Position numbers and translations under genes: made by a program. A stretch of 64,000 nt of DNA from a virus. Its lineage: Duplodnaviria; Heunggongvirae; Uroviricota; Caudoviricetes. This document shows, piece by piece, positions 6,038-47,050 of the stretch. Below the pieces are notes generated by a model that saw nothing but the letters and a program-made list of their open reading frames with translations, did not search any database and was not told the origin of the DNA. Each line of letters begins with the position of its first letter. Within the stretch, counting starts at the first letter, position 1. The stretch covers positions 26,956-90,955 of the IMG/VR virus record IMGVR_UViG_3300013104_000003; one strand, given 5' to 3'.

Positions 6038-6448
6038 TTATTTCACCAATTCTTTCAAAGCTTCTGTGCTGCCTTTGAAATCTACATCAGGCAAAATCGT
6101 CTGTGGTTTAAACACAACCTTGTAATGATAGACGCTGACATCTGCCGAGTCAAGCTGTTCACTGAAGAATGAAACGTTATCACTCAAGCCAAGGGTGTGC
6201 TTTTTGTAAGCATTTGGACCAAGCTTGCAAGTGACTGCCACTTTCTGACCACCGGCTTCTACTTCAAACGAACACCGCCCTTCAATAGACAGCAAGTAAC
6301 TATCAGTGATTCCATTGAAGAATACGATACGTCGATTGATTTGGAAGTTATCAGCAGCTTGTGAGAGATTGCGTGAGGCTACGCTTGCATCATTCTCACA
6401 ACCAGTCAATATAGAAAACAAACTCATTAGTGCAATAATCTTTTTCAT
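6038..6448 (-). CDS. Early-expressed lipoprotein (signal peptide plus lipobox L-T-G-C)
   Basis: 136 aa. N-terminus MKKIIALMSLFSILTGC fits a type II signal peptide and lipobox. Confidence 0.6.
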   Translation of the reverse strand: MKKIIALMSLFSILTGCENDASVASRNLSQAADNFQINRRIVFFNGITDSYLLSIEGRCSFEVEAGGQKVAVTCKLGPNAYKKHTLGLSDNVSFFSEQLDSADVSVYHYKVVFKPQTILPDVDFKGSTEALKELVK

Positions 6449-6623
6449 TTCTTATCCTCTTTCTTCGGACTGCAAAGAATCGTAGAAGGCTTGTCAGCAG
6501 AATTTTTAAGCACAAGTTCAATGTTTTCATAGCAAAGCTCTTTGGTTGGATAGTCAACTATGATAATCCTGTCACAAAGTCCCCATGTCACCGCAGTGCA
6601 GATATAGAGTGTCCACATGATGT

Positions 6624-6827
6624 CTATTCCCAGTTCCTTTTAAGGTTACGCTGTTGTTTACGCTCATCTTGACGATTACGTTTGTTATCACCCCACTCAT
6701 CCTTACGCTTACTATTCATCTTAACAAACGATTCCTTGTAGCTGCATTGTTCATTATTCATTTCAGTAGGCTCGTCCGTAAAATCCGTGTAATACATGTC
6801 TTCTTGCTCAGTTGTTTGGGTTGTCAT
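6624..6827 (-). CDS. Hypothetical small acidic/basic protein
   Basis: 67-aa minus ORF. Confidence 0.4.
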   Translation of the reverse strand: MTTQTTEQEDMYYTDFTDEPTEMNNEQCSYKESFVKMNSKRKDEWGDNKRNRQDERKQQRNLKRNWE

Positions 6828-7945: not shown

Positions 7946-8211
7946 TTGTAGCTCTCCAGAAGATAATTAATTTTCTTGATTCGGTCAATGTAGCCTTGTG
8001 TGTTACCATCCCATTCAACAGTATCTGCGTAGGTTAGATCCCAGTTACTCAAGTGAATCTTAGCTGCTGTCTCGCTCTGAAGGTCAATCGCATATGTCAA
8101 GTCAAATTCAACATCTGTCCAACCAGTCAAATACTCATCACCAAGATACTTGGTTGTGTCATCTGGCTGTGTTTGGGCAATAGCTTTTTGTAATGCTAGG
8201 AGGTAGGTCAT
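7942..8211 (-). CDS. Hypothetical early protein
   Basis: 89 aa. 4-nt overlap with neighbours, suggesting translational coupling. Confidence 0.5.
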   Translation of the reverse strand: MTYLLALQKAIAQTQPDDTTKYLGDEYLTGWTDVEFDLTYAIDLQSETAAKIHLSNWDLTYADTVEWDGNTQGYIDRIKKINYLLESYK

Positions 8212-8450
8212 TTTGACAACTTTTCAGACCAATAATCAAAATCGTGAAAGATGAATGGTCGAGGCTCATCTTCAACATATACGTCAGTGCCTTTAACAGT
8301 TACTGTATCAATTTCCAATCGATTGTATACAGGGGACAAGTTACCAGCAAGATAAACACCATCCTCAATTGGAAATTTTCCGTACATCAATCGTTTAGTC
8401 ATCTCAAACCCCTCCAATTTCATATTCAACTTTACGAATAAGCTCACCAC
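8208..8450 (-). CDS. Hypothetical early protein
   Basis: 80 aa with overlapping start/stop. Confidence 0.5.
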   Translation of the reverse strand: MVSLFVKLNMKLEGFEMTKRLMYGKFPIEDGVYLAGNLSPVYNRLEIDTVTVKGTDVYVEDEPRPFIFHDFDYWSEKLSK

Positions 8451-8586
8451 GATAGTGACTACTCGCTACAGGAATTCCATCCTCATCCAGACACAGCCAC
8501 ATATTCTTCTCAGACACTTTATCATGTGTCTTGCTGAATGTAAATCCTAGGCTGATGAGGATTTGCTCTGTTTGTGCTGTGTTCAT
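8404..8586 (-). CDS. Hypothetical early protein
   Basis: 60-aa minus ORF. Confidence 0.4.
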   Translation of the reverse strand: MNTAQTEQILISLGFTFSKTHDKVSEKNMWLCLDEDGIPVASSHYRGELIRKVEYEIGGV

Positions 8587-8780
8587 TTAATCTGCTCATA
8601 GCATTGTTCAAGAAAATCCACAATAACCTTAGCCCCAAACTTTGTAGGCTCATCTTTGAGGTTGTCCACTGCACGTCTAAGCTGATAAAGGCTTTCAGCA
8701 GTAAGAATAATACCCTTAGCTCGACGGTCATTTACAGATTTGAAGTTGACGTACATTACTTGTCCTCCTTGTACAACCAA
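8583..8780 (-). CDS. Hypothetical early protein
   Basis: 65 aa. Preferred over the overlapping 8522-8731 frame because of its protein-like composition. Confidence 0.4.
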   Translation of the reverse strand: MVVQGGQVMYVNFKSVNDRRAKGIILTAESLYQLRRAVDNLKDEPTKFGAKVIVDFLEQCYEQIK

Positions 8781-8953
8781 CCACTAGGAAGGCAATCGTT
8801 AGCCCATTCAAACATCTCGCCAATATCCAGCCCATAAGCAATACGCTTGTTAGTCCAGCCACAACAATCTTTGAAGGATTGAATAGTAGGATTGATCGTG
8901 TCTCGATATGACTGTTTGAATCGTTTAAAAGGTTTCATTCTGTCACCTCCCAA
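8756..8953 (-). CDS. Hypothetical early protein
   Basis: 65-aa minus ORF. Confidence 0.4.
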   Translation of the reverse strand: MGGDRMKPFKRFKQSYRDTINPTIQSFKDCCGWTNKRIAYGLDIGEMFEWANDCLPSGWLYKEDK

Positions 8954-9405: not shown

Positions 9406-9578
9406 TCCGAATCACTCCAAATAACCTGTGCACTGTAACGATAGCAACCGTATTCCATCGACTTCTTGTCAGCAAACCGTCTTGCTACAGAGCCTTTATC
9501 AGCAGAATAGGTTTTCAACACTGCTCTGGTTTGATTGTCTACCACTTTGTAGCCTAAAATTTGGCGTTCAGTGTTCAT
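9402..9578 (-). CDS. Small hypothetical protein (58 aa)
   Basis: ATG at 9576-9578. Sits downstream of a predicted promoter. Below the ORF-track cutoff. Confidence 0.35.
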   Translation of the reverse strand: MNTERQILGYKVVDNQTRAVLKTYSADKGSVARRFADKKSMEYGCYRYSAQVIWSDSE

Positions 9579-9617
9579 GATGCTGATTCCTGTGTGTTGT
9601 TTGCTTCGTTATGAACA

Positions 9618-9646
9618 AGCTTAGTATAAAGCTCTCACGAATGCAA
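9618..9646 (-). promoter_or_regulatory. Sigma70-like promoter TTGCAT-N17-TAAGCT (minus strand)
   Basis: Reverse complement of 9641-9646 is TTGCAT. Reverse complement of 9618-9623 is TAAGCT. Confidence 0.4.
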
Positions 9647-9661
9647 GAGCTTTGTGTAAAA

Positions 9662-9859
9662 TTATTCAGAAATTACAGCTATTTCATCCTCACACACTGG
9701 CCAGCAACCCGCTTGTCCAGCGATTCCCTCTTGTTGAACATCGTAAGCCACTTGGTTTCCTTCATAACTTCCTGAAATAACCCCCAAAGAACCTAGTGGA
9801 AAGCTGTCAAAATAGGCCTTAACCACCTTCACTTTATCACCAACTTTAAATTTATTCAT
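9662..9859 (-). CDS. Small protein of the MxKFKVGDKV paralog family
   Basis: N-terminus MNKFKVGDKVKVV is paralogous to 4561-4773. Confidence 0.5.
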   Translation of the reverse strand: MNKFKVGDKVKVVKAYFDSFPLGSLGVISGSYEGNQVAYDVQQEGIAGQAGCWPVCEDEIAVISE

Positions 9860-9869
9860 TTTAAATTCC

Positions 9870-10109
9870 TCAGAGGTCGTTGTATTCTTTCAAAGATTCT
9901 TCAAGACTATAGAATCTTCCAACTACATCTTCTTTGTAATATAATTTAAAGAAGACAGAGGTTAGTGACGGATTAACAAAGGCTGTAAGCTTACGTGGAT
10001 AGTCTGCACAAACAATCTGTTCAAATGTCCAATCTTGCAGGTCTTTCAGTTCTACATATTGACGACGTGCCATCTCATCTCTCCTAGCTATTTGTGTGTT
10101 TGCTTTCAA
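9870..10109 (-). CDS. Hypothetical early protein
   Basis: 79 aa, directly downstream of the promoter at 10117-10145. Confidence 0.5.
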   Translation of the reverse strand: MKANTQIARRDEMARRQYVELKDLQDWTFEQIVCADYPRKLTAFVNPSLTSVFFKLYYKEDVVGRFYSLEESLKEYNDL

Positions 10110-10116
10110 TGACTAA

Positions 10117-10145
10117 ATCTTAGCTCTTGCACAAACCCATGTCAA
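10117..10145 (-). promoter_or_regulatory. Sigma70-like promoter TTGACA-N17-TAAGAT (minus strand)
   Basis: Reverse complement of 10140-10145 is TTGACA. Reverse complement of 10117-10122 is TAAGAT. Confidence 0.55.
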
Positions 10146-10215
10146 CCACTTTTCTTAAATTATTTTTCTACAGGCAAAGAAAAAGCCTCCGGGTTAGGAA
10201 GGCTTTGAGGGTAGA

Positions 10216-10422
10216 TCAATTTCGACGTTTTATTGTCTTAAAAGCTTCATCCAAATACTTTTTGACACGAATCTTCCCGTCACTAATACGAAACACTCGG
10301 TATTGTCCATCGTCAGTCTTAGTGATTGTCCCAAGGATCACTCCACGAGAATCAAACACCCTACGAACACGAGTTCCGGCTACATCTGAATATTTCCCGT
10401 ATACACCACTAGAAGTTTTCAT
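10216..10422 (-). CDS. Small basic protein (possible nucleic-acid binding)
   Basis: 68 aa, K/R-rich. Confidence 0.5.
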   Translation of the reverse strand: MKTSSGVYGKYSDVAGTRVRRVFDSRGVILGTITKTDDGQYRVFRISDGKIRVKKYLDEAFKTIKRRN

Positions 10423-10501
10423 AATGTATTCCTCTTGAGATTGTAAAGAAATAGTTTGCTATAGCCCCAGCAAGCTGCTCCAGTCTTTCCCCTTGAGAGA
10501 T

Positions 10502-10530
10502 AGCTTATGACACCTTATAGATCGTGTCAA
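10502..10530 (-). promoter_or_regulatory. Sigma70-like promoter TTGACA-N17-TAAGCT (minus strand)
   Basis: Reverse complement of 10525-10530 is TTGACA. Reverse complement of 10502-10507 is TAAGCT. Confidence 0.5.
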
Positions 10531-10544
10531 CACCTCATTTCAAA

Positions 10545-10823
10545 TTATTTCAATGTTGGAAGATTTTCGTTGTAAATCAAACCTTTACACACCAAATCTT
10601 CTTCAATTTTCCCACTATCCTGATAATATTTCTTGTCTTCATCGTTATCAAATGCCCAATCAGCAGGGACCCACAACACTGTATCCAAGAATTTCTCAAG
10701 TGTTTCCTTACTCTGTACCAAAGCTCCAAGACAATCGTTACGAGCCTCAGATTGAGGAAAAGATTCAATAGCTTGCTTGATTTGTAAAACGTTCAGATCA
10801 GTGTTGCTGATGGTTGCATTCAT
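10545..10823 (-). CDS. Hypothetical early protein
   Basis: 92-aa minus ORF. Confidence 0.5.
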   Translation of the reverse strand: MNATISNTDLNVLQIKQAIESFPQSEARNDCLGALVQSKETLEKFLDTVLWVPADWAFDNDEDKKYYQDSGKIEEDLVCKGLIYNENLPTLK

Positions 10824-10952
10824 TTTGTCTAGCTCCTGTTGTACCAGTTTTTTTGTTTACTCTGATATACAGTTTATCTGAGCAATTTTACAAATCAAGG
10901 TGTTTTAAATAATTATTTTTGTGTTATTTCCGATTCTGCCATTTCAAGATCA

Positions 10953-11468
10953 TCAGCGATGCTCATGACTTCCTGCCTCGGGTTTGGGGTTGAGGGCGGC
11001 GCGAATCGACTTCGAAAGTTTCGCCGTTGGATTGAGCGCTGCCAGTGTCTGTTCGAGCAATTTCCGAAGCTGCTGGTTATCGGCTGACAGCTCCGCAATG
11101 CGCTGCTCGGCGTCGGCAAGCTGGGCATTCTTGGCGCGGATTTTGTCGTGGATTGAATGCTCGTAATCCCAATCGACTCCGCTCAGCTCGTATGCAGGGT
11201 TTTCCAGCATAGTTTCAGCAAGCCCAACCGTCATTCGCCAAGCAGCATTCGATCCTTCTGAACTCGCACGCAAGCGTTTCTGCTCATCCCGTTCGGCCTC
11301 AGCCGTATCGGCGCGCATGCGTTGGGCGCCCCACAGTGGCGCCATGTTCTGTTCAATATCGGCGGCGACAGAATGTAGGCTGACCATCTGCTGGTTTGCC
11401 GGCTTTGTGCGAGCCATTGTGCGGTAGCTTTCTGCGTACGCCTGAACAGGATTTTTCACATCATCCAT
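10953..11468 (-). CDS. Hypothetical protein encoded by a GC-rich island (moron)
   Basis: 171 aa, A/R/Q-rich coiled-coil-like. The DNA is visibly far more GC-rich than the flanks. Confidence 0.55.
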   Translation of the reverse strand: MDDVKNPVQAYAESYRTMARTKPANQQMVSLHSVAADIEQNMAPLWGAQRMRADTAEAERDEQKRLRASSEGSNAAWRMTVGLAETMLENPAYELSGVDWDYEHSIHDKIRAKNAQLADAEQRIAELSADNQQLRKLLEQTLAALNPTAKLSKSIRAALNPKPEAGSHEHR

Positions 11469-11604
11469 TTTTCAATACCCCATTGAATAAGTTTAAATTT
11501 CATCGTCCTACATCCATATCAATATCATCTTCACTGTCACCACAACTACTGGCAACTCCTACAAGGAGGCAGAATACCACAATTACAAAGATTATCCACC
11601 ACAT

Positions 11605-11865
11605 TTAAAACATTCCTGTAATCTGGTGCCACTTTTCTTCTACGAATTGTACACCCTGCTGATACTCTTTGGAAAATTCTGAGCCATAGATATAATCTAC
11701 ATCTTGTCCACCATTCCAAGTAGACAGCCAAGTCTCAAGAGAAAGCACGCTGTCCAAGCCACAAGCGTAGACCCCATCTACCAGAGCTTCTTTAAAATCT
11801 TCTGTCTCACTTGTCTCATCCAAAGCTTTCTCTAGCTGTGTCTTTAGGATTTCTAGAGGGTTCAT
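11605..11865 (-). CDS. Hypothetical early protein
   Basis: 86 aa with overlapping stop/start. Confidence 0.5.
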   Translation of the reverse strand: MNPLEILKTQLEKALDETSETEDFKEALVDGVYACGLDSVLSLETWLSTWNGGQDVDYIYGSEFSKEYQQGVQFVEEKWHQITGMF

Positions 11866-12167
11866 AGAGGAACCTCAATCTTTGCCCAATGAGTGACATT
11901 AAGCTTTGTCATTTCATCAACTTCATCATAAAAATGCTCGTCATCAATACGGGCAACTAGATACAAAGGCCAACCACTCTTCACTAAGCTGATCGTAAGG
12001 TAGAGCAGAGGCCTTGATGAATGATGTCCACCGCTTTGCATCTTGAATCTGTTCAGCAGATGGACGTTTGGAAACAACAGCTTTTTCTTTACAGCGCTCA
12101 TAACATTCTCCTCATAAATATTGTCTTTCTGTGTTTGTATTGTGGATCGTTGTGGAGGGATTGTCAA
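11862..12167 (-). CDS. Hypothetical early protein
   Basis: 101-aa minus ORF. Confidence 0.5.
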   Translation of the reverse strand: MTIPPQRSTIQTQKDNIYEENVMSAVKKKLLFPNVHLLNRFKMQSGGHHSSRPLLYLTISLVKSGWPLYLVARIDDEHFYDEVDEMTKLNVTHWAKIEVPL

Positions 12168-12436
12168 GGATTGATTTCAATTATTTGAAAAGGAACGTGG
12201 ATAATCTCATCAACAAACTCAGATAAATAATGCGTTGAGCCATCTGCTTTAAAATGCAACCCTTTCGTATTCTCATATAGCTTTACAGAGTTGATATGTC
12301 CTGTGTATTGGTTTAGGACATCAACATATTTGTCAAGGCCTGATTGCTGATTGGGGTGTTGCTTCCTGTCATAAGGCTCTTTGACAATAGCAAACCATCC
12401 GTTGGATTTGAGGGTTTGTGTTTTGATTTCAGTCAT
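12164..12436 (-). CDS. Hypothetical early protein
   Basis: 90-aa minus ORF. Confidence 0.5.
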   Translation of the reverse strand: MTEIKTQTLKSNGWFAIVKEPYDRKQHPNQQSGLDKYVDVLNQYTGHINSVKLYENTKGLHFKADGSTHYLSEFVDEIIHVPFQIIEINP

Positions 12437-12767
12437 TTACTTTCACCACATCTTCATCATAAATAATATCTACAGAGTAAGCCTGCAACCAATCATCATA
12501 AGCTTCCTGCACAGTGTTGCCGTGACCAGAACACACAATTCGTTCGCAGTTTGAATATGGATTCTTTTCATCGCTGGTACAAATCCAACTCAGATTCCAC
12601 TTCTTGTTGCAGGTGATAACAGGCTTAGGGAAGTGTCCAATTCGCAAAGGATCTTGCCACATTTTGTCAATGAGCTTTTGGATTTCAGCCCATTTTTCAG
12701 GGCTGCCCTTTAGTTTGATTTCAGTCAAGAGCTTTCTCCTCATTAGAAATAAACCACTTACACCCAT
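12429..12767 (-). CDS. Hypothetical protein, GHGxTVQEA-motif paralog family
   Basis: 112 aa. CSGHGNTVQEAYDDWL matches IFGHGDTVQEAWKDYL in 13351-13584. Confidence 0.5.
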   Translation of the reverse strand: MGVSGLFLMRRKLLTEIKLKGSPEKWAEIQKLIDKMWQDPLRIGHFPKPVITCNKKWNLSWICTSDEKNPYSNCERIVCSGHGNTVQEAYDDWLQAYSVDIIYDEDVVKVND

Positions 12768-12874
12768 CGTTCGGATTCTTGCAAGCTACCACCATGCACA
12801 AGAATGCCTGATACTTTGGCAAAGGTGGACGTGTGTATCTCTCACAGGATTCTTTGGCGTTACAGCCTGTGCCT

Positions 12875-13063
12875 TCACATTTGATCGATGCGCTCATTTA
12901 TATTCTCCTCTAAATTACTAATAACGTCATGTAGAACTTTTAAAGCACTCTTAACACCTTCTTTATCATAGGTGACATACAGCCGACCAGACTTTATTGG
13001 ATGGTTCAGGAAAATGTGAACATCCTTCAAAGCGTTTTCTACAGATTTCTTAACTTCACTCAT
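12875..13063 (-). CDS. Hypothetical early protein
   Basis: 62-aa minus ORF. Confidence 0.45.
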   Translation of the reverse strand: MSEVKKSVENALKDVHIFLNHPIKSGRLYVTYDKEGVKSALKVLHDVISNLEENINERIDQM

Positions 13064-25776: not shown

Positions 25777-27951
25777 GTGGCAGATTTGAAATTTATTGAA
25801 GGACAATGGATTTTTGACATTGAAACGTATCCAAACTGCTACACTTTTTGTGCTGTATATTCAAATGGTAAGGGGATTCGTACCTTTGAGATTAGTGATC
25901 GTAAAAACGAAGTAGAAGAGATGCTTGATTTTCTTCGCAAAGTAGCTACGTCCAAACACAAGTTGGTAGGTTTTAACAATGTCGGCTTTGACTATCCCGT
26001 CATTCATTACATTTTGGAGAAGTCAAAGAAAGCAAAAGTAGCCGGTAAACCTTTGGTGATTAATGCTAAAGAGATTTATGATGTAGCTATGAAACTTATT
26101 CGTAGTCAGAATGATGAGAAGTTTGGTAATGCAATTCGGGATAAAGAAGTAAAGATCCCTCAAGTTGATCTGTTTAAGATTCATCACTTCGATAACAAGG
26201 CTCGTGCCACGTCTTTGAAGATGCTTGAATTCAATATGCAGTCAGACAACATTGAGGATCTTCCTTATCCTGTTGGTACGATGTTAAAGGATCATGAGAT
26301 TGATGAACTAATTAAGTACAACAAACACGATGTCCTTCAAACATTGAAGTTCTATAAAGAATCTATTGAGGCTATTCGTTTTCGTGAGAAACTAACTGAG
26401 AAGTACGGATTTGATTGTACAAACTATAATGACACGAAGATTGGTAAACAGTATTTTATCAATCGTCTTGAAAAAGCTATGCCGGGATCTTGTTATACAA
26501 AGAATCCTCATGGTGGACGTACAATTAATCAAACGAAACGTCCTATCATTTATTTGAAAGATGCAATTCTTCCTTACATCAAGTACGAACGTGAGGAATT
26601 TAAAGCTCTTTTGAAGTGGTTTAAGACGCGGAGCATTATAGAAACAAAAGGTGTGTTCATTGATGTACTTGAAAAAGATTTGGGAGAGCTTGCTAAATAC
26701 TCTCAACTGACAACCAAGAAACGAAAGCTGAAGACCAAACCAACCGATGAGGAATTAGTAGCACTCAAGGAAGAAAACCCATTGTCTTGGGTTGAAGAAA
26801 TTGAGTTGAAAGGTAAAGAAACTAAAGCTAATGGCGGTGGTCAGAAGAAAGCCTATTGGTTGAACTGGAAAGTTGCTGAAACATTGAACGTAGTTGTTGA
26901 TGGGTTTCGCCTTGACTTCGGTACAGGCGGTATCCATGGTAGCGTAGAATCAACAATTGTTCGCTCTGATGAGGATGAAGTAATCGACGACCGAGATGTC
27001 GCCAGCTACTATCCAAATTTAGCGATCTCTAATAACGTCTATCCAAAACATCTTGGACAGAACTTTTGCCGTATCTATAAAGATGTTTATGTAGAGCGTA
27101 AATCACACCCTAAAGGTAGCCCAGAAAACGCTGTAATGAAGCTTGCTTTGAACGGGGTGTATGGTGATTCAAATAGTGAGTTTAGTCCGTTTTATGACCC
27201 ACTTTATACCATGACAATCACCATTTCGGGCCAGCTTTCACTGTGTATGTTAGTAGAGGATTTGCTGAAGGTTGAAGGTTTGAAAATGGTACAGGCTAAC
27301 ACCGATGGCATCACTTTCAAACACAAACGTTCTGATGATCCTTTGGTTGATAAAATTGTCAGTGATTGGGAAGTGACAACAAAGCTGGAGATGGAGCGTA
27401 ACGATTATTCTATGATGGCAATTCGTGACGTTAACAATTACATCGCTATCTATGAAAAAGGTGGAAGTGTAAAACGTAAAGGAGCATACGAATATGCTGA
27501 TTTGGATTGGAATAAAAACTTCTCATCGTTGGTGATTCCTAAAGCTGCTGAGCATGAGATTCTTGGACGTGGAACTGTTGAGGAATTTATTGAGAACCAT
27601 AAAGACAAATGGGACTTTATGTTGCGTACGAAAGTACCTCGTAGCTCTCGCTTGATCATGGTGATGCCTGACGGGACGGAAGTACCGCAGCAGAATATCT
27701 GCCGGTATTACCCTGCAAAAGAAGGTGGTAAGCTTGTAAAGATTATGCCAGCACTAGAAGGTAAGGAAGCTGATGGTGATCGTCGTTTGAGTATTGATAA
27801 AGAGTGGAATGTCAATACTTGTAATGATATTAAAGATTTTAAATGGGGCGTGGACTATGAATATTATATTTCTGAAGCACGTAAATTGGTTGATCCGTTA
27901 ATGGGTAAAGGTGAAGTAATTGAAAGAAGTGTGGAAACCGATTATTCTTGA
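25777..27951 (+). CDS. Family B DNA polymerase with 3'-5' exonuclease domain
   Basis: 724 aa, GTG start with RBS. Exo I is FDIETYPN, Exo II GFNNVGFDYPVI and Exo III YNKHD. Pol motif A is DVASYYPNLAI, motif B KLALNGVYGDSN and motif C QANTDGITF. Confidence 0.8.
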   Translation: MADLKFIEGQWIFDIETYPNCYTFCAVYSNGKGIRTFEISDRKNEVEEMLDFLRKVATSKHKLVGFNNVGFDYPVIHYILEKSKKAKVAGKPLVINAKEIYDVAMKLIRSQNDEKFGNAIRDKEVKIPQVDLFKIHHFDNKARATSLKMLEFNMQSDNIEDLPYPVGTMLKDHEIDELIKYNKHDVLQTLKFYKESIEAIRFREKLTEKYGFDCTNYNDTKIGKQYFINRLEKAMPGSCYTKNPHGGRTINQTKRPIIYLKDAILPYIKYEREEFKALLKWFKTRSIIETKGVFIDVLEKDLGELAKYSQLTTKKRKLKTKPTDEELVALKEENPLSWVEEIELKGKETKANGGGQKKAYWLNWKVAETLNVVVDGFRLDFGTGGIHGSVESTIVRSDEDEVIDDRDVASYYPNLAISNNVYPKHLGQNFCRIYKDVYVERKSHPKGSPENAVMKLALNGVYGDSNSEFSPFYDPLYTMTITISGQLSLCMLVEDLLKVEGLKMVQANTDGITFKHKRSDDPLVDKIVSDWEVTTKLEMERNDYSMMAIRDVNNYIAIYEKGGSVKRKGAYEYADLDWNKNFSSLVIPKAAEHEILGRGTVEEFIENHKDKWDFMLRTKVPRSSRLIMVMPDGTEVPQQNICRYYPAKEGGKLVKIMPALEGKEADGDRRLSIDKEWNVNTCNDIKDFKWGVDYEYYISEARKLVDPLMGKGEVIERSVETDYS

Positions 27952-28480
27952 TGATATTCAAGAGCGATATGCAATTAGTAATTTTGGAAAAGTGATTGAC
28001 TTGAAGAACCAAAAGTATATGAATTGGCACGACAATGGTGCTGGTTATATGACAGTTGGTCTTCAGGGACCAAAATCAAAAGTACGAGTTCGTTATGTTC
28101 ATCGTTTGATTGCTATTGCATTCCTTGATAATCCTGATAAACTACCTCAAGTTGGACACAAGGATCATACACGAGCTAACAATTTCGTTGATAATTTGTA
28201 CTGGACAACACAGAAACAAAACACGGCAGATGGTATTGAGGCTGGGCGGATTAATGCAAATCGCCCCAAGGCTAACAGAAAAGTTACAAAAGAAATTATT
28301 TGTAAGATTGCATTGTTAGAAAGTTTAGGGTATGGTGTGAACGAGATTGCAATGAAAATGGACTTTCCGCGTACAACGATTTCTAGTGTGTTCAACGGGC
28401 GGAGTAACAGCGAGTTGTTTGAGTTCGTGCGAAAAGAAATTAGAGATTCGACTTGCATACCCCAACCAAACTTGCTATAA
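27920..28480 (+). CDS. HNH homing endonuclease (NUMOD4 plus HNH_3-type)
   Basis: 186 aa with YAISNFGKV and VGHKDHTRANNFVDNLYWTTQKQN. Overlaps the 3' end of the polymerase gene. Confidence 0.75.
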   Translation: MKEVWKPIILDDIQERYAISNFGKVIDLKNQKYMNWHDNGAGYMTVGLQGPKSKVRVRYVHRLIAIAFLDNPDKLPQVGHKDHTRANNFVDNLYWTTQKQNTADGIEAGRINANRPKANRKVTKEIICKIALLESLGYGVNEIAMKMDFPRTTISSVFNGRSNSELFEFVRKEIRDSTCIPQPNLL

Positions 28481-29724: not shown

Positions 29725-30465
29725 ATGACTAACAAAACCGAAGTGATCGTTCGTGACCTGCCTAAATCGGGTACTCTGGAAACAGCAAATGTTTACATCA
29801 AAAACGCTGTAGTTTACTACGCAGCCGTACACGACCCGAAACTTAAATACCAGTCGCAGGAGAAAGAGTTTAGTGCAACTGTCTTTGTGGATGAGGAAGC
29901 TAAGGATCGGCTGCTTGATGAAGTGATGGTTAACAAATCCTTCTCCCAAGTGGGCATCACCAAAACTTCTAAGCCACCTCGAAAAATTAAATTCGCATTG
30001 TCTTCGCAAGTTGAAGAAGGTAAAGCTAATTATGATCTGGTAGATGGTTTGTGGGGCTTCAACATTGCCAAGCCTGAGTTTAGCAAGAAGGGTCTGCCAA
30101 TGTCTGTTAACGTGATTGATGCAGAAGGTAATGCATTCACTGAGAACGTCGGTAATGGTAGTGTTGTTAACCTGAAGTTGTTTGGCTATAAGAATCAGGA
30201 CGGTCAACTTACTGTTACTCTGGACACTATTCAAGTGATTGAGCACGTAGCTTATGAGGGTAAAGGTTCGTCTGATTCGGTTGATGATGATGTATTGGGT
30301 GTAAGTTATAAGGTGAAAAAGACTGAGGCTAAGCCTGCTGAAGAGGAAGCTACTGTAGCGCCTAAGAAAGCAAACCCAGTTCCACAGAAAAATGATGTAG
30401 ATACTTCTTTCGAGGAAGATTTGCCTTTCAATCGTATCAGTGATCGTCTGTTGATGATTATTTAA
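29725..30465 (+). CDS. Single-stranded DNA-binding protein (T7 gp2.5-like)
   Basis: 246 aa. The N-terminal OB-like region resembles gp2.5. The acidic C-terminal region carries an SSB-type DLPF motif. Confidence 0.6.
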   Translation: MTNKTEVIVRDLPKSGTLETANVYIKNAVVYYAAVHDPKLKYQSQEKEFSATVFVDEEAKDRLLDEVMVNKSFSQVGITKTSKPPRKIKFALSSQVEEGKANYDLVDGLWGFNIAKPEFSKKGLPMSVNVIDAEGNAFTENVGNGSVVNLKLFGYKNQDGQLTVTLDTIQVIEHVAYEGKGSSDSVDDDVLGVSYKVKKTEAKPAEEEATVAPKKANPVPQKNDVDTSFEEDLPFNRISDRLLMII

Positions 30466-31122: not shown

Positions 31123-31335
31123 ATGGGTTGGGGCGGTGGAACATACATTTTTGATGCTGTTGTAGGTGCTCTACGTGATGCTAAAGTCACAAAGGAGCAA
31201 TTTGAAACCATCATTATTGATTTGAATGAAGAGCTTGAATCACAGGATTGGGATAATCTTTGCGAATCAGATTATTATGATGACCCTCAAATTAAGGACA
31301 TCTTTGATCTTTGGGAGGAGGAAGATGACGAGTAA
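31123..31335 (+). CDS. Small protein with a highly acidic C-terminus
   Basis: 70 aa from the ATG with RBS gaggagaa. The C-terminus is DLWEEEDDE. Confidence 0.45.
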   Translation: MGWGGGTYIFDAVVGALRDAKVTKEQFETIIIDLNEELESQDWDNLCESDYYDDPQIKDIFDLWEEEDDE

Positions 31336-32326
31336 AATAACTTCAATTATAGACCTAGATTACGTAAAGTATTCCTCTGCATCAGTTGGTGAGAAACGTT
31401 CTATTATCGTGACACATAAAACTTCAGGGCGTGAAAAGGAGTTCAACACACGAACAGAATTCTACGGACGAGATAAGGCAAAGTCTGGAGGTTGGCTTGG
31501 TGAATTGAATGCAAAACGTGCCAGCCCTTTTGCTGTAGATGAGTTTGATATTGTTGATCGTCAAGTTGCTGAACCAATTGATCATGTGTTGCAGATTGCA
31601 AAGACTCAAGTTGAAGGTGATCTAAAACGACTTGGTACAACTAAGTACAAAGCTTTCTTGGGTAAAGGTGATAGTTTCCGAGTAGAGTTGTCCACACTAA
31701 AGAAGTACAAAGACAATCGAAAGGATATGCTTCGGCCCTTGCATATGGATGCAGTTACAGAGTATCTTGAACGTAAGTTTAAAGCTGAGATTGTCACAGG
31801 TATTGAAGCTGATGATCGTTGTGTAATTGAGGCTTACAATAATCCTAATGCTATAATTCAGGGTCTGGATAAAGACTACTATGGACAACCAGTAAAGTTC
31901 TTCAACGTCAACCGACCAGAAGAAGGTATTCAAGACTGCAATCAGTTTGGTAGCTTGTGGTTAGATGATAAAGGAGATGTTCGTGGTATTGGACGTATGC
32001 ACCTTTATTGGCAAGTAGCTTCAAATGATACATCAGACAACTATGCTGCAAACTGTTTCTCAGACATTAAGTGGGCGGGGAAATCAGCCTACAAAAGCTT
32101 AGTAGAGGCTAAGACTGACACTGAGGCATGGGAGAAGCTTAAAGGGATTTTCCAGTACCTTTATCCCGAAGAAAAGACTGTTTTAGGCTGGAGAAACGAC
32201 CCTATCAACATCACTTGGAATTATGTCTTGAATGAGATGTTTATGATGGCTAGGATGCTTAAGGTTGAGGGTGAGAGTATTAATGCTTATGATGTTATGG
32301 ATAAATTGGGAGTAAGTTATGATTAG
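31325..32326 (+). CDS. 5'-3' exonuclease / flap endonuclease (T4 RNase H / T5 D15-like)
   Basis: 333 aa from the ATG with strong RBS gggaggaggaag. FEN signature GIEADDRCVIEAY (G-x-EADD). DKDYYG aligns with the SxDKD motif. Confidence 0.65.
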   Translation: MTSKITSIIDLDYVKYSSASVGEKRSIIVTHKTSGREKEFNTRTEFYGRDKAKSGGWLGELNAKRASPFAVDEFDIVDRQVAEPIDHVLQIAKTQVEGDLKRLGTTKYKAFLGKGDSFRVELSTLKKYKDNRKDMLRPLHMDAVTEYLERKFKAEIVTGIEADDRCVIEAYNNPNAIIQGLDKDYYGQPVKFFNVNRPEEGIQDCNQFGSLWLDDKGDVRGIGRMHLYWQVASNDTSDNYAANCFSDIKWAGKSAYKSLVEAKTDTEAWEKLKGIFQYLYPEEKTVLGWRNDPINITWNYVLNEMFMMARMLKVEGESINAYDVMDKLGVSYD

Positions 32327-32495
32327 TCAAACAGCAGAAAAGATGCATGACGGCATCATGAACAACATTGAAAGTATTATTGATCTAGGTTACTTGGAGT
32401 ATTCTTCCACTAAAGAATACCTTGATATGTGCAATGCAATCTACATCTTTTGTGAAGCTTATAAACAAGGTATCTGGACCGAAGATGAAGAGTGA
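32319..32495 (+). CDS. Small hypothetical protein (58 aa)
   Basis: ATG at 32319. Overlaps both neighbours by a few nt. Confidence 0.35.
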   Translation: MISQTAEKMHDGIMNNIESIIDLGYLEYSSTKEYLDMCNAIYIFCEAYKQGIWTEDEE

Positions 32496-33021
32496 GCCAT
32501 GGATTGAAGCACCGCATATCTGGCCTACTAAATCAAGTTTCTTTGTATTCTTAAGGGGTGCGTTACGTCGAGCAATTTGGGAACGTTGGCCTTTGAAGAT
32601 CGAATTCAAGAATGAAGCTTGTAGCCCACCACCAGAAGATTATAAAGGACGTGCAAAGAGTGGGGCATATTGTGCTCTATCTGGTGAGTGGGTTGGCAAA
32701 TCAGCCAGTGAGATTGATCACGTAATTGGGAATGCAAGCTTAAAAGATTGGGAAGATGTGTTACCATTCATTCTGCATCTGTGTGCTTCCAAGGATAATA
32801 TGCAAATCGTGTCCAAGGAAGCACACAAAATTAAGAGCTACGCTGAAAAGATGGGAATTACTTTCGAGGAGGCTTCATACACCAAAGAGGCAATCGCCAT
32901 TTGTAAGGCTAAAGCTGATGTTAAGTGGTTGCAGGATAAAGGTATTCGACCAGATAATAATGGGTTGAAGCGACGTGGACAGATTATTAATCAATTGAGG
33001 AAAGAGAATGAGCACAGTTGA
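32485..33021 (+). CDS. Putative HNH-motif nuclease
   Basis: 178 aa. CALSGEWVGKSASEIDHVIGN...N...EAHK fits a C..G...DH..N..H HNH-like arrangement. Confidence 0.4.
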   Translation: MKSEPWIEAPHIWPTKSSFFVFLRGALRRAIWERWPLKIEFKNEACSPPPEDYKGRAKSGAYCALSGEWVGKSASEIDHVIGNASLKDWEDVLPFILHLCASKDNMQIVSKEAHKIKSYAEKMGITFEEASYTKEAIAICKAKADVKWLQDKGIRPDNNGLKRRGQIINQLRKENEHS

Positions 33022-45575: not shown

Positions 45576-46064
45576 TTAAACATTTGATGGTGCTGTTGCT
45601 GAAACGCTCAGATCCATACCCTCACTAGGCTGGACAGGCCATTCTACATCAGGAGGCCACCCAGCTTGAGAAGTGACACGGCCCAGAAGCACCGCATAAG
45701 TTTTCCAAGCTTTAAGTTGTAGAACTCTTTTAGGCAGTTCAATTTCTTCTTCAGGTGTGGCCATCTCTAACTCAATAGCATCATTGAGTGTACTAATTCT
45801 ATTAGTTAAGGCTACCTTCTGAGAGTTAGCCAGTTGGGTTAGACTTTGTAGTTTAAAGCTTTGACTAATCAGAATTTCTTCTGGCGTTGGCGCTGCAACT
45901 GGAGGTGGGTGAAATTCTCCGTCAATGTAGCTCCAACCTTTACCTGCCACAGAAGATTCTACAGCTATACAGCCATCAGGAGGCGTCCAGTCTGAGATAC
46001 CATCCCAAGCAATTGTATTGATTACCAAGTTTGTTTGTAAATCAATAACACAATAAGTGCTCAT
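45576..46064 (-). CDS. Tail fiber-associated protein (assembly or distal fiber)
   Basis: 162 aa, directly downstream of the fiber gene. Confidence 0.4.
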   Translation of the reverse strand: MSTYCVIDLQTNLVINTIAWDGISDWTPPDGCIAVESSVAGKGWSYIDGEFHPPPVAAPTPEEILISQSFKLQSLTQLANSQKVALTNRISTLNDAIELEMATPEEEIELPKRVLQLKAWKTYAVLLGRVTSQAGWPPDVEWPVQPSEGMDLSVSATAPSNV

Positions 46065-47050
46065 TATACGTATTCCTCCACAATCCAGCCACCTTTAGTC
46101 CCGTTACCGCCCTGCTGAGAAGCCGCGGTGTTGGATGGTGAATTAGACCCAGATCCTGCACCACCCATACCCGTTCCGTCCCTACCCCCCGTAGCTACTG
46201 GTGCATTACCTCCTGTTCCTAGTGGGTTACTGCCACCTGCACCAGCTTGAGAACTGTTCAAGACTATCCCATTATCCCCTGCTTGGCCGGGAACTGAAGC
46301 AATGTTAGTGCCAGTTGGAGCATTACCAGTACCACTGTTAGCAGCAGAAATACGTGCTGCAATCGCGGCTTGAGCAGATCCAACTCCACCAAAACCACCG
46401 GGGCATGTCATAATAACTCCAAAAACAGAGTCACCACCATTAGTGCCCGATAGTGTACCAACTCCTCCTGTGCCCGCTGAACCAACAGTTACGGCAACAC
46501 TCACCGGGGGACTAGTATAAATACCTTCACCATAGCTTCCTGCTGTCCCTCCGCTTCCTGCTGCTGCGTTACCAACAGAGGTCGCAGCAGATCCACCACC
46601 ACCACCACCTCCACCAACGCCTCTTAAGCGGTATTTAGTGGTGCGGGTATCGAATGTGAATGTTCCAGAAGTATTGATAACTGTAGTTTTTATAAGTGTA
46701 CCACCAGCAGGTACGAAGGGTTTCCAGTATGTAAATGTAACATCGGTAACTGGGTTCTGATTTATACTATTTTGGACTCCAACATAGATAACTCCATTAC
46801 TTCCTTGTACATAACTTTTTGTACCATTTGTTGTTGAGTAGTAATTCTCAGTTGCTGACCAAACACTGACGCCTTTCTGGAACAAGTGGAGAATTGCATT
46901 ATCTTGACGGTTCTGTAGGAAGTTTTCCCACTGAAAAGGAGGAACTTCAGCAGTCCACCCAGTTTGAATCTTAACATTACTAGGAGCTACAATTGCTCCG
47001 CCAGATGCCCATTGAAAAGAGAAATCCGGTTTGTTTACCTCAGTAGCCAT
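46064..47050 (-). CDS. Tail fiber protein with a Gly-rich collagen-like segment
   Basis: 328 aa containing a G10 run and GTGG/SGG repeats. Confidence 0.55.
   Translation of the reverse strand: MATEVNKPDFSFQWASGGAIVAPSNVKIQTGWTAEVPPFQWENFLQNRQDNAILHLFQKGVSVWSATENYYSTTNGTKSYVQGSNGVIYVGVQNSINQNPVTDVTFTYWKPFVPAGGTLIKTTVINTSGTFTFDTRTTKYRLRGVGGGGGGGGSAATSVGNAAAGSGGTAGSYGEGIYTSPPVSVAVTVGSAGTGGVGTLSGTNGGDSVFGVIMTCPGGFGGVGSAQAAIAARISAANSGTGNAPTGTNIASVPGQAGDNGIVLNSSQAGAGGSNPLGTGGNAPVATGGRDGTGMGGAGSGSNSPSNTAASQQGGNGTKGGWIVEEYV

Follow-up and report, generated by a model that had tools for sequence, protein, structure and literature searches.

Why does a gene of sharply higher GC content lie in the early region of an AT-rich phage, and was it acquired once or is it the latest of several occupants of the same site? 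We addressed this question for an open reading frame (ORF) of 171 amino acids (aa), here named CC1, at positions 10953-11468 on the minus strand of a 64,000-nucleotide (nt) stretch of phage DNA (positions 26,956 to 90,955 of the IMG/VR virus record IMGVR_UViG_3300013104_000003, Caudoviricetes). This whole stretch is referred to below as the window; it is part of a metagenomic phage contig of 124,983 bp with a GC content of ~40%. An earlier sequence-only reading had taken the GC-rich island for a recently acquired moron encoding a coiled-coil protein. In our view, the early region of this AT-rich myovirus of ~125 kb probably contains a slot at which genes have long been exchanged; the island would be its present occupant, and belongs to a module that is shared with GC-rich Pseudomonas phages.

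Results

Composition and borders of the GC-rich island

The ~0.5-kb island described by the sequence-only reading in AT-rich surroundings was borne out by sliding-window analysis. The CC1 ORF, which is intact from ATG to TGA, has a GC content of 0.564 compared to a window mean of 0.402 (standard deviation, SD, of 516-bp windows 0.031; z = 5.3), and the most GC-rich 516-bp window in all 64 kb is 10931-11446 (0.566). The 171-aa ORF had also been called correctly, with the specification that it is encoded on the minus strand. Compared to 47 native minus-strand ORFs of the same small-gene array, CC1 is higher both in GC content (0.564 vs 0.397, +6.9 SD) and in the GC content of third codon positions (GC3; 0.593 vs 0.388, +3.6 SD). 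A k-mer check likewise pointed to a foreign gene: the trinucleotide profile of CC1 has a correlation of 0.87 with the GC-rich phages that carry relatives of the gene and of -0.10 with the remainder of the window, i.e., the genome in which it resides, and native 541-bp windows gave averages of 0.82 and -0.28 in the same comparison.

The borders of the island are sharp. In 200-bp windows, the GC content is 0.37-0.39 up to ~10.9 kb, 0.49-0.57 inside the island and 0.39-0.42 from 11.4 kb onward. Homology of the window to a sister phage (locus L030) stops on the left at 11455, apart from a shared sequence block (block A, defined below), and resumes on the right at 10930, and homology to GC-rich phages begins at 11493. 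Based on the GC profile and these homology limits, we placed the imported segment at ~10931..11493 (minus strand, ~563 bp); it is slightly larger than the ORF and is bounded by AT-rich native flanks.

Two simple explanations were considered, namely, that the patch is a metagenome mis-assembly, or that it is a mere effect of a protein rich in Ala, Arg and Gln. The window does derive from a short-read metagenome assembly, and the CC1 protein is rich in Ala, Arg and Glu. Moreover, the second-ranked GC-rich 516-bp window, 46101-46616 (GC 0.543), does reduce to its codons: it lies within the ORF 46064-47050 (minus strand), which encodes a tail-fibre-like protein of 328 aa (Pfam Gly_rich_2), and covers the C-terminal two-thirds of this protein, which are rich in Gly and Ala. 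Horizontal transfer was rejected for this patch, as Gly (GGN) and Ala (GCN) codons account for its GC content. For CC1, however, the GC3 is well above that of native genes, and a family member in a relative of the window phage (L031) is encoded at GC 0.44; therefore, the protein sequence does not force a high GC content. An assembly chimera at the island is unlikely because the identical CC1 protein is present on two records (JGI and ENA), and because the sister phage, which is on an independent IMG/VR contig, has a GC-rich insert with the same two junctions. We consider an artefact of assembly or protein composition to be extremely improbable.

Relatives of CC1 in GC-rich phages

Relatives of CC1 are located in the early/accessory gene arrays of phages that are unrelated to each other and to the window phage. 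These carriers include a 41.5-kb phage with a Cro/YdaS-like repressor, a 95-kb phage with ThyX and ribonucleotide reductase (RNR), phages of 43-48 kb with DUF2800, an Enc34-type single-stranded DNA-binding protein (SSB) and PolA, and prophages of Pseudomonas koreensis (L009) and P. baetica, which were the only cellular genomes matched. Several of the carriers, as well as the window phage, are not lambdoid, and no integrase is nearby. The GC content of the carriers is 0.475-0.61, and that of the gene equals its background there (0.55 vs 0.56 in L005), so that an island is seen only in the window. Because the composition of the island is foreign in the window and that of the gene matches the background in the carriers, we conclude that the CC1 DNA was imported from GC-richer Pseudomonas phages.

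In the donor-type phages, CC1 belongs to a module with the order small hydrophobic peptide ORF, CC1, variable small gene, CC2. The last of these is a second mosaic coiled-coil gene family, the products of which start with MTNNPTIDGVSR... and are 150-304 aa long; it is located one gene downstream of CC1 in most donors and has no match in Pfam or PADLOC. Copies of CC2 were located at L005 10670-11410, L009 9034-9942, L002 10578-11363, L030 4998-5450 and L032 4581-5072. In the P. koreensis prophage, the gene order is RecT, YqaJ ... CC1 ... AlpA, integrase. The recombination genes of the donors are either RecT/YqaJ or an Enc34-type SSB with a DUF2800 nuclease.

Mosaic structure of the CC1 allele

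Most of the DNA loci compared here were collected by an exact pattern for block D; blocks B and C were not used for collection. The module contains blocks A-H of 30-60 bp that are near-identical across phages with otherwise unalignable DNA. Four of these, A-D, are in the window gene, where they are 30-45 bp long, and another four, E-H, belong to CC2 and are common to 8-17 of 20 loci in an all-against-all comparison. In the window, blocks A-D alternate with three variable modules, which are described below from the start of the gene to its end; all positions are on the minus strand.

The first element is block A' (11450..11493), which consists of the 3' end of the donors' small hydrophobic-peptide ORF, a Shine-Dalgarno sequence and the first 6 codons of CC1, and forms the left junction of the import (11493/11494). 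Over 40 bp, it is 100% identical to L009, the prophage of P. koreensis, and its identity to L005 is 97.7%; the donors share ~45 bp more upstream that have no counterpart in the window. In the donors, block A is the 3' end of a conserved hydrophobic ORF of 25-30 codons (...LIALACHGLPQLIQW... or MIPQTLFAILGLAMTGWPQLIQGCMS*), the stop codon of which overlaps the CC1 start. It is followed by the variable N module (type N2, 11329..11449), with 79% DNA identity to L007 over nt 85-191 of the gene; this module is related to those of P0005 and P0019/L007, and a distant relative is located inside DUF551-ending proteins of Klebsiella and Vibrio phages. Block B (11288..11328), with the protein motif DAQRLRADTAEAE, is 90-97% identical to L005, L009, L011 and L030 despite non-homologous flanks, and its 18-nt core TGCGCGCCGATACGGCTG is identical in 16/16 loci. 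The change of partner from N to M1 falls inside this block.

The M1 module (type M1_1, 11131..11287) is also variable; the segment B-M1-C is 85.9% identical to L002 and 76% identical to L004, and the M1 protein segment has ~33% aa identity to gp21 of Pseudomonas phage pf16. Block C (11088..11130; motif AAEQRIAEL) is conserved at 88-94% identity. Here, homology to L002 ends and homology to L005 starts, with the switch located inside the 33-bp core of the block. The M2 module (11004..11087) is of the commonest type, M2_1, and the segment C-M2-D is 99.4% identical to L005/L006 and 91% identical to L011. Block D (10963..11003) encodes the disordered tail AALNPKPEAGSHE and ends in AGGAAGTC-ATG-A, i.e., a Shine-Dalgarno sequence and a start codon. 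It is 100% identical over 41 bp to L009, the CC1 protein of which is only 33% identical overall to the window protein. In every donor, the block-D ATG is the start of a different, unrelated downstream gene, with an overlap of 8-11 nt with the CC1 stop region. Block D was found in 17 further loci; in one of them, the tail is attached to an HNH endonuclease.

A segment of 32 nt (10931..10962) separates block D from native DNA. Its local alignment to an L005-type block H, the 3' end of CC2, has z = 5.9 compared to shuffled sequences and contains several indels; this segment is possibly a decayed remnant of block H.

The most recent part of the allele is best seen in a stretch of 158 bp (10963-11120, gene nt 349-506), which comprises most of block C, M2 and block D. 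It is 99.4% identical to L005/L006, with no synonymous change (dS = 0 compared to L005), and the matching phage is unrelated and has a GC content of 55.5%. Together with the stretches of 40-41 bp that are 100% identical to the P. koreensis prophage, this strongly supports the earlier suggestion of a recent acquisition from a donor of higher GC content. Each of the three segments (N, M1 and M2) occurs elsewhere with other partners; 39 distinct proteins comprise ~20 types of N, ~28 of M1 and ~15 of M2 in 37 combinations. Judging from these identities and switch points, the window allele is a three-way recombinant, in which N, M1 and M2-D derive from different lineages and the switches are inside blocks B and C.

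The cassettes may also be arranged in tandem, as observed in L009. A 103-aa ORF (8130-8441) begins with block A (MDDVKPVHRYKAQTM...) and has no blocks B-D, and is followed by a 143-aa CC1 member (8434-8865) with an overlapping start.

The slot in related phages

Three relatives of the window phage were found via the genes that flank the slot. On the left, a native 86-aa gene (11605..11865, minus strand) is conserved with aa identities of 99%, 67% and 64% in L030, L031 and L032; on the right, a native 92-aa gene (10545..10823, minus strand) is conserved with 95%, 68% and 67% in L033, L034 and L035. The left flank of the slot proper is a native, AT-rich 34-aa hydrophobic ORF, MWWIIFVIVVFCLLVGVASSCGDSEDDIDMDVGR (11500..11604, minus strand), with a lipoprotein-signal-like start, which is conserved in L030. 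It occupies the place of the donors' own small hydrophobic peptide ORF upstream of CC1, which could be a coincidence or a functional replacement.

In the sister phage L030, where the flank proteins are 95-99% identical, both junctions coincide with those of the window: on the left, TGAAATTTAA is joined to ACTTATTCAATGGGG...ATGGATGATGTGAA, and on the right, the sequence returns to native DNA at the same place (GAAATAACACAAAAATAATT, window ~10930). The interior is a different GC-rich segment of 1.05 kb. It encodes a 131-aa CC1 allele, which has blocks A-D (94-97%) but nothing else in common with the window, and further contains a 74-aa gene and a CC2 copy truncated in block H. In L032, a more distant relative (~65% identical), the GC-rich insert lacks CC1 and starts at a block-D-type ATG; its first gene is 92% identical to the gene downstream of block D in P. 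baetica, and is followed by two CC2-type ORFs, the second of which ends in block F. The slots of two relatives thus hold shortened CC2 copies. In L031, the slot encodes, at GC 0.44, a 135-aa coiled-coil protein that lacks the block-D tail and matches the C-terminal half of the L028 CC1 with 70% identity over 73 aa; this allele is presumably AT-adapted and older.

Because both junctions are shared with the sister phage, they are old. Between the window and L030, the dS of the native flanks is 0.27-0.52, compared to dS = 0 between the M2-D segment and L005, so that at least M2-D was replaced recently. We consider it probable that the slot is a long-standing gene-exchange site in this phage lineage, reused with different pieces of one donor module. 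As to presence in relatives, the earlier reading fares well in part: the same gene with the same composition is not core to the family, yet the locus itself is long-standing in the lineage.

These observations bear directly on the designation of CC1 as a moron. Morons are extra genes of atypical composition between conserved phage genes, a concept of Hendrix and co-workers, and a classical moron would be an autonomous single gene with its own promoter and terminator, placed between adjacent genes by one illegitimate insertion and not yet ameliorated. The likeness is clear: CC1 is an accessory gene in an early accessory region, its GC content does not match that of the genome, its borders are sharp, and the genes on either side of it are conserved in relatives. 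In addition, the left junction has no obvious homology between native and donor DNA, so the original insertion may have been illegitimate. However, a sigma-70 consensus scan found no promoter-like site on the minus strand in 10953-11560 and no terminator-like site after CC1. The gene is chained to its neighbours by start/stop overlaps: a predicted chimeric mini-ORF of 15 codons, MKFKLIQWGIEKWMM* (11456..11503, minus strand), composed of native sequence and block A', has an ATG that overlaps the stop of the native 34-aa ORF (ATGA) and a stop that overlaps the CC1 start. On the other side, a predicted remnant ORF of 17 codons, MSIADDLEMAESEITQK* (10913..10966, minus strand), opens at the block-D ATG. 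We propose that CC1 would be expressed by read-through and translational coupling in an early operon; because it is embedded in this way and has no promoter or terminator of its own, it is not an autonomous moron. Also unlike a moron, the gene itself is mosaic, with segments of different age (79%, 86% and 99.4% identity to three donors), the slot was never seen empty in the three relatives, the sister phage has identical junctions around another interior, and all three relatives hold other pieces of the donor module, one allele being AT-adapted. The moron designation and a one-off acquisition are therefore not upheld, and we regard the classical moron explanation as improbable.

Proposed exchange at the blocks and its alternatives

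For the long-standing exchange slot, we think it rather likely that exchange occurs by short-homology recombination of the single-strand-annealing type, with the blocks as homology arms, during co-infection or infection of a lysogen. An infecting AT-rich phage would meet a GC-rich phage by co-infection, or a prophage on infecting a lysogen, and the blocks would serve as homology arms for annealing-type recombination. Enzymes suited to this are encoded by both partners: the Gp2.5-like annealing protein and exonuclease in the window phage, and RecT/YqaJ or the Enc34-type SSB with the DUF2800 nuclease in the donors. Annealing-type phage recombinases can use block lengths of 30-60 bp. Precedents exist for relaxed recombination by phage recombinases (PMC3945230, PMC5499656) and, as concepts, for shuffling at short intergenic promoter and stem-loop elements (PeSLs; PMC2839356) and for gene flow across phage lifestyles (PMC8136500).

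An alternative explanation without a mechanistic role for the blocks is selection for their function: blocks A, D, E and H would be kept as translation-initiation regions, and B, C, F and G as essential motifs, with rare illegitimate exchange followed by selection. Each junction block does have a purine run that resembles a Shine-Dalgarno sequence, as well as an ATG that overlaps the stop codon upstream, and among the protein motifs of the family, conservation is highest for B and C. Furthermore, in the comparison of the window with L002, where the module between blocks is homologous, the mismatches are 14.6%, 14.6% and 11.6%, i.e., B and C are no better conserved than M1. The notion that blocks are always less diverged than the adjoining homologous modules was accordingly rejected; it held for block D only, not for B and C. 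Conversely, the core codons CGC GCC GAT ACG GCT are the same in 16/16 loci, with no synonymous variation in the B/C core codons, in proteins that are only 30-45% identical, which exceeds what constraint on the protein or the ribosome-binding site would predict. Nor does such constraint account for the partner switches inside blocks of 33-41 bp or for the same 13-codon tail on an unrelated HNH endonuclease, and the block lengths of 30-60 bp fit the range of annealing-type recombinases. Conservation by a known RNA is ruled out, as RNA families were absent in an Rfam scan of 10500-12000. Selection on function alone is, in our estimate, unlikely to explain the blocks.

The endonuclease with the block-D tail suggests yet another explanation, namely, that double-strand breaks by free-standing HNH endonucleases spread the locus between co-infecting phages, the blocks being co-converted flanks or targets. 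In L015, an endonuclease-type protein of 187 aa (HNH_3+NUMOD4; 6250-6813, minus strand) replaces CC1 exactly between the cassette start and block D, as an in-frame fusion to the first three cassette codons (MSE...) and the 13-codon block-D tail. HNH genes are also located near the module in L002, and the window phage has two. Nevertheless, an endonuclease is in the slot in only one of ~20 loci, none adjoins CC1 in the window, and the target site is not known. The L015 arrangement is an in-frame A-to-D replacement, as cassette exchange predicts, unlike a typical intergenic homing insertion. Because this protein is in frame between the cassette start and block D, the blocks delimit an exchangeable cassette. 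Homing as the driver of spread is therefore quite improbable in our judgment.

Several points weigh against an exchange slot that works through its blocks. We infer recombination at the blocks from breakpoints. The L002 comparison is one such point, and the collection of loci is another: the exact block-D pattern selects one recombining pool and inflates the conservation of block D. From these two points together, the safe claim is only that the blocks are common to alleles with non-homologous DNA between the blocks, not that they are frozen. For the junction blocks, plain function (Shine-Dalgarno sequence and start of the next gene) would also be a reason for conservation, and B and C could be conserved protein motifs. 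No direct donor with the whole window allele was found; a search of metagenome contigs for direct donors or closer alleles gave 5 loci, none of them closer. An empty site was not seen either, as all three relatives hold other cargo, with 520-1286 bp between the flank genes. The assignment of a Pseudomonas host is indirect, and the function of CC1 has no support from homology, with negative results in Pfam, NCBIfam, PHROGs, PADLOC, a PDB sequence search and Foldseek.

The CC1 protein and its family

The claim of a coiled-coil protein has support as far as modelling goes. The AlphaFold2 model of CC1 is all-helical (helices 7-21, 31-89 and 100-159; mean pLDDT 81), with pLDDT of 80-97 in the two long helices, 31-89 and 100-159, and a disordered C-terminal tail of 12 residues that is encoded by block D. 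For CC1 and 24 relatives, matches to coiled-coil hidden Markov models (HMMs) are weak, sub-threshold and limited to generic families.

The absence of any known motif or family, as noted earlier, was confirmed by the searches. With Pfam, PHROGs, NCBIfam and PADLOC, CC1 and the 24 relatives gave only sub-threshold coiled-coil noise, and the PDB sequence profile search only tropomyosin- or bZIP-like noise (E > 0.03). Foldseek with the AlphaFold2 model found nothing at E < 1 in PDB and BFVD, which is expected because the model is extended and helical. The PADLOC models had no match at E <= 0.01 to CC1, CC2 or their small neighbours, which gives no tie to known anti-defence genes and no support for the host-takeover or anti-defence role that the earlier reading had raised for morons of this kind.

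A word-indexed search identified 28 CC1 relatives, and an exhaustive profile search extended the family to 281 representatives of 50%-identity clusters, of which 193 had E <= 1e-10. The source names of the former are 'hypothetical protein', with the sole addition of P0026, 'conjugal transfer/entry exclusion protein', a label that we took as coiled-coil noise; none of the source names of 10 further relatives is informative. In the family alignment (A1), the protein has a variable N-terminus, the motif DAQRLRADTAEAE, a variable M1, AAEQRIAEL, a variable M2 and the tail AALNP[KN]PEA[GE]SHE. Motif B is present in 157/160 relatives, and motifs C and D in 127/160 each; the window protein has all three in the family order.

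The shared modules evolve under strong purifying selection, with omega of about 0.08-0.12: for M1, omega is 0.08 (dS 0.66) and 0.077 (dS 1.66), and for M2, it is 0.10. This selection marks CC1 as a working protein.

The N module of the window protein (NPVQAYAESYRTMA...DIEQNMAPLW) recurs, according to BLASTP and tblastn, as part of larger hypothetical proteins with a C-terminal DUF551 domain (26-50% identity), e.g., ORF23 of Klebsiella phage vB_Kpn_RAH1 (L037 3671-4801), in the nin-type region of a lambdoid genome, and a protein of Vibrio phage pYD38-A (L039 2674-3363). Two further variants were noted in the family. In P0059, P0070, P0079, P0091, P0096, P0107, P0111 and P0136, the block-D peptide is internal and the ORF reads through it into a small Cys-rich (zinc-ribbon-like) protein, ...SHEVAREALKMENQRITPARFKCLACG...; CC1 is thus fused to the downstream gene in these relatives. 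In L027 (~160-280 and upstream), a 39-codon ORF has the block-D tail, and block C sequence is located just upstream, out of frame; this locus appears to be a frameshifted or decayed CC1 allele.

As to function, we tentatively propose that CC1 may be an elongated helical, probably oligomeric coiled-coil adaptor. Oligomerization would depend on the conserved, presumably heptad-based regions of B, C and M2, and the exchangeable module at the N-terminus would set the specificity for a target, which might be a component of the host or of a rival phage, early in infection. As part of the same tentative proposal, CC1 would resemble mosaic exo-xis proteins such as Ea22 of phage lambda in function without being homologous to them.

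The phage and its host

The window comprises (i) an array of small minus-strand ORFs of ~19 kb, which holds CC1 and in which some ORFs have Pfam matches to T4 early ORFs; (ii) a plus-strand block for replication and nucleotide metabolism, with primase-helicase, DNA polymerase, RNR and thymidylate synthase; and (iii) minus-strand structural genes, with baseplate J, a DUF3383 sheath-like protein and major capsid protein E. Because CC1 is in the small-ORF array, part of which has T4 early-ORF matches, and because this array runs divergent from the replication module, the early-region placement given by the sequence-only reading is plausible.

The recombination genes of the window phage are a Gp2.5-like SSB/annealing protein (29725-30465) and an exonuclease (31226-32326), both located between two HNH endonuclease genes of the replication module (27920-28480 and 32422-33021, plus strand). 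The first HNH gene overlaps the 3' end of the DNA polymerase ORF (25777-27951).

A nucleotide search of window positions 9500-13000 against 50,697 phage records gave zero matches, i.e., no close isolate relative. By DNA polymerase, the closest isolates are Pseudomonas phage vB_PpS_SYP and Nitrincola phage 1M3-16, at 54% identity. Since the only cellular genomes matched by the CC1 family and its loci are those of P. koreensis and P. baetica, a host among the fluorescens-group Pseudomonas is suggested for this myovirus; the Pseudomonas phage nearest by DNA polymerase is a further pointer to such a host.

Discussion

The nearest analogue of CC1 is Ea22 of lambda and its counterpart Ead of P22, encoded in the exo-xis region (Pfam PF13935, Ead_Ea22; PMC7093339, PMC10834534). 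Ead/Ea22 proteins are tetrameric and have pro-lysogenic activity (PMC7093339, PMC10834534). Like Ea22, CC1 is a non-essential early gene, dominated by predicted coiled coil, with a marked block mosaic between phages, and in the L009 prophage it is located at the exo-xis position, between RecT/YqaJ and AlpA-integrase. Furthermore, DUF551 is the C-terminal domain of one Ea22 variant, and the CC1 N module also occurs in mosaic proteins that end in DUF551. Nevertheless, homology was rejected: 0/24 members match PF13935 at E <= 0.1, compared to 1.1e-28 for the lambda Ea22 control, and hhalign of the family profile A1 with lambda Ea22 gave a probability of 0.4%. The layout is also reversed. CC1 has a variable N-terminus and a conserved C-terminal coiled coil, whereas Ea22 has a conserved N-terminus and coiled coil followed by a variable C-terminal domain; CC1 has no alpha/beta C-terminal domain, and its carriers are virulent as well as temperate.

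A second comparison is with PeSLs of T4-type phages, which are present in many copies per genome (PMC2839356, PMC4122927) and were proposed as favoured sites of homologous recombination that swap cassettes without breaking operons (PMC2839356). As in the shuffling of T4-type hyperplastic regions, short conserved sequences flank variable ORFs in the early/accessory regions of large virulent myoviruses. However, each block described here occurs only once per genome and consists of coding sequence or of a start/stop overlap, with B, C, F and G located inside genes; the blocks are common to unrelated phages that differ in GC content and lifestyle. Block D was rejected as a many-copy PeSL or repeat, as it occurs as a single copy in each locus and likewise in the window. 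Neither island border, both being coding overlaps, has a PeSL-type sigma-70-like early promoter with a stem-loop terminator.

The third comparison is with relaxed (homeologous) recombination by Rad52-like single-strand annealing proteins and with the 'linker' idea of Susskind and Botstein (PMC3945230, PMC5499656, PMC8136500), in which mosaic junctions are flanked by short similar sequences, as is the case here. Another parallel would be the exchange between an infecting phage and a resident prophage; recombinase genes are present in both partners. Unlike in those cases, the same set of blocks recurs in dozens of phages and splits single genes into segments that reassort.

A foreign GC-rich gene in a phage is by itself ordinary. 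What CC1 adds is a gene family that is new and has no annotation, together with a well-resolved variant of the mosaicism known from phages, in which the blocks reach inside genes and cross lifestyles. At a fixed slot, DNA has passed from GC-rich phages of the temperate type into a virulent-type phage of 40% GC, and the case is clean and can be dated. With CC1 and its companion CC2, a sizeable unannotated family is defined in Pseudomonas phages, and an uncultured 125-kb phage receives an indirect host assignment to the fluorescens group. The locus also offers a testable system for the old question of whether phage mosaicism arises via short conserved 'linkers' or through random illegitimate joins.

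It is conceivable, although we regard it as speculative, that the blocks are more than relics of common descent, being maintained 'linker' sequences that make peptide-CC1-x-CC2 a community-wide cassette-shuffling locus, at which virulent AT-rich and temperate GC-rich Pseudomonas phages would continually reassort target-specificity segments of the two coiled-coil proteins in an arms race (anti-defence, superinfection exclusion or host takeover). If true, the locus would generate diversity within genes by a natural, recombineering-like process and would be a tangible example of the Susskind-Botstein linkers, which have long been debated.

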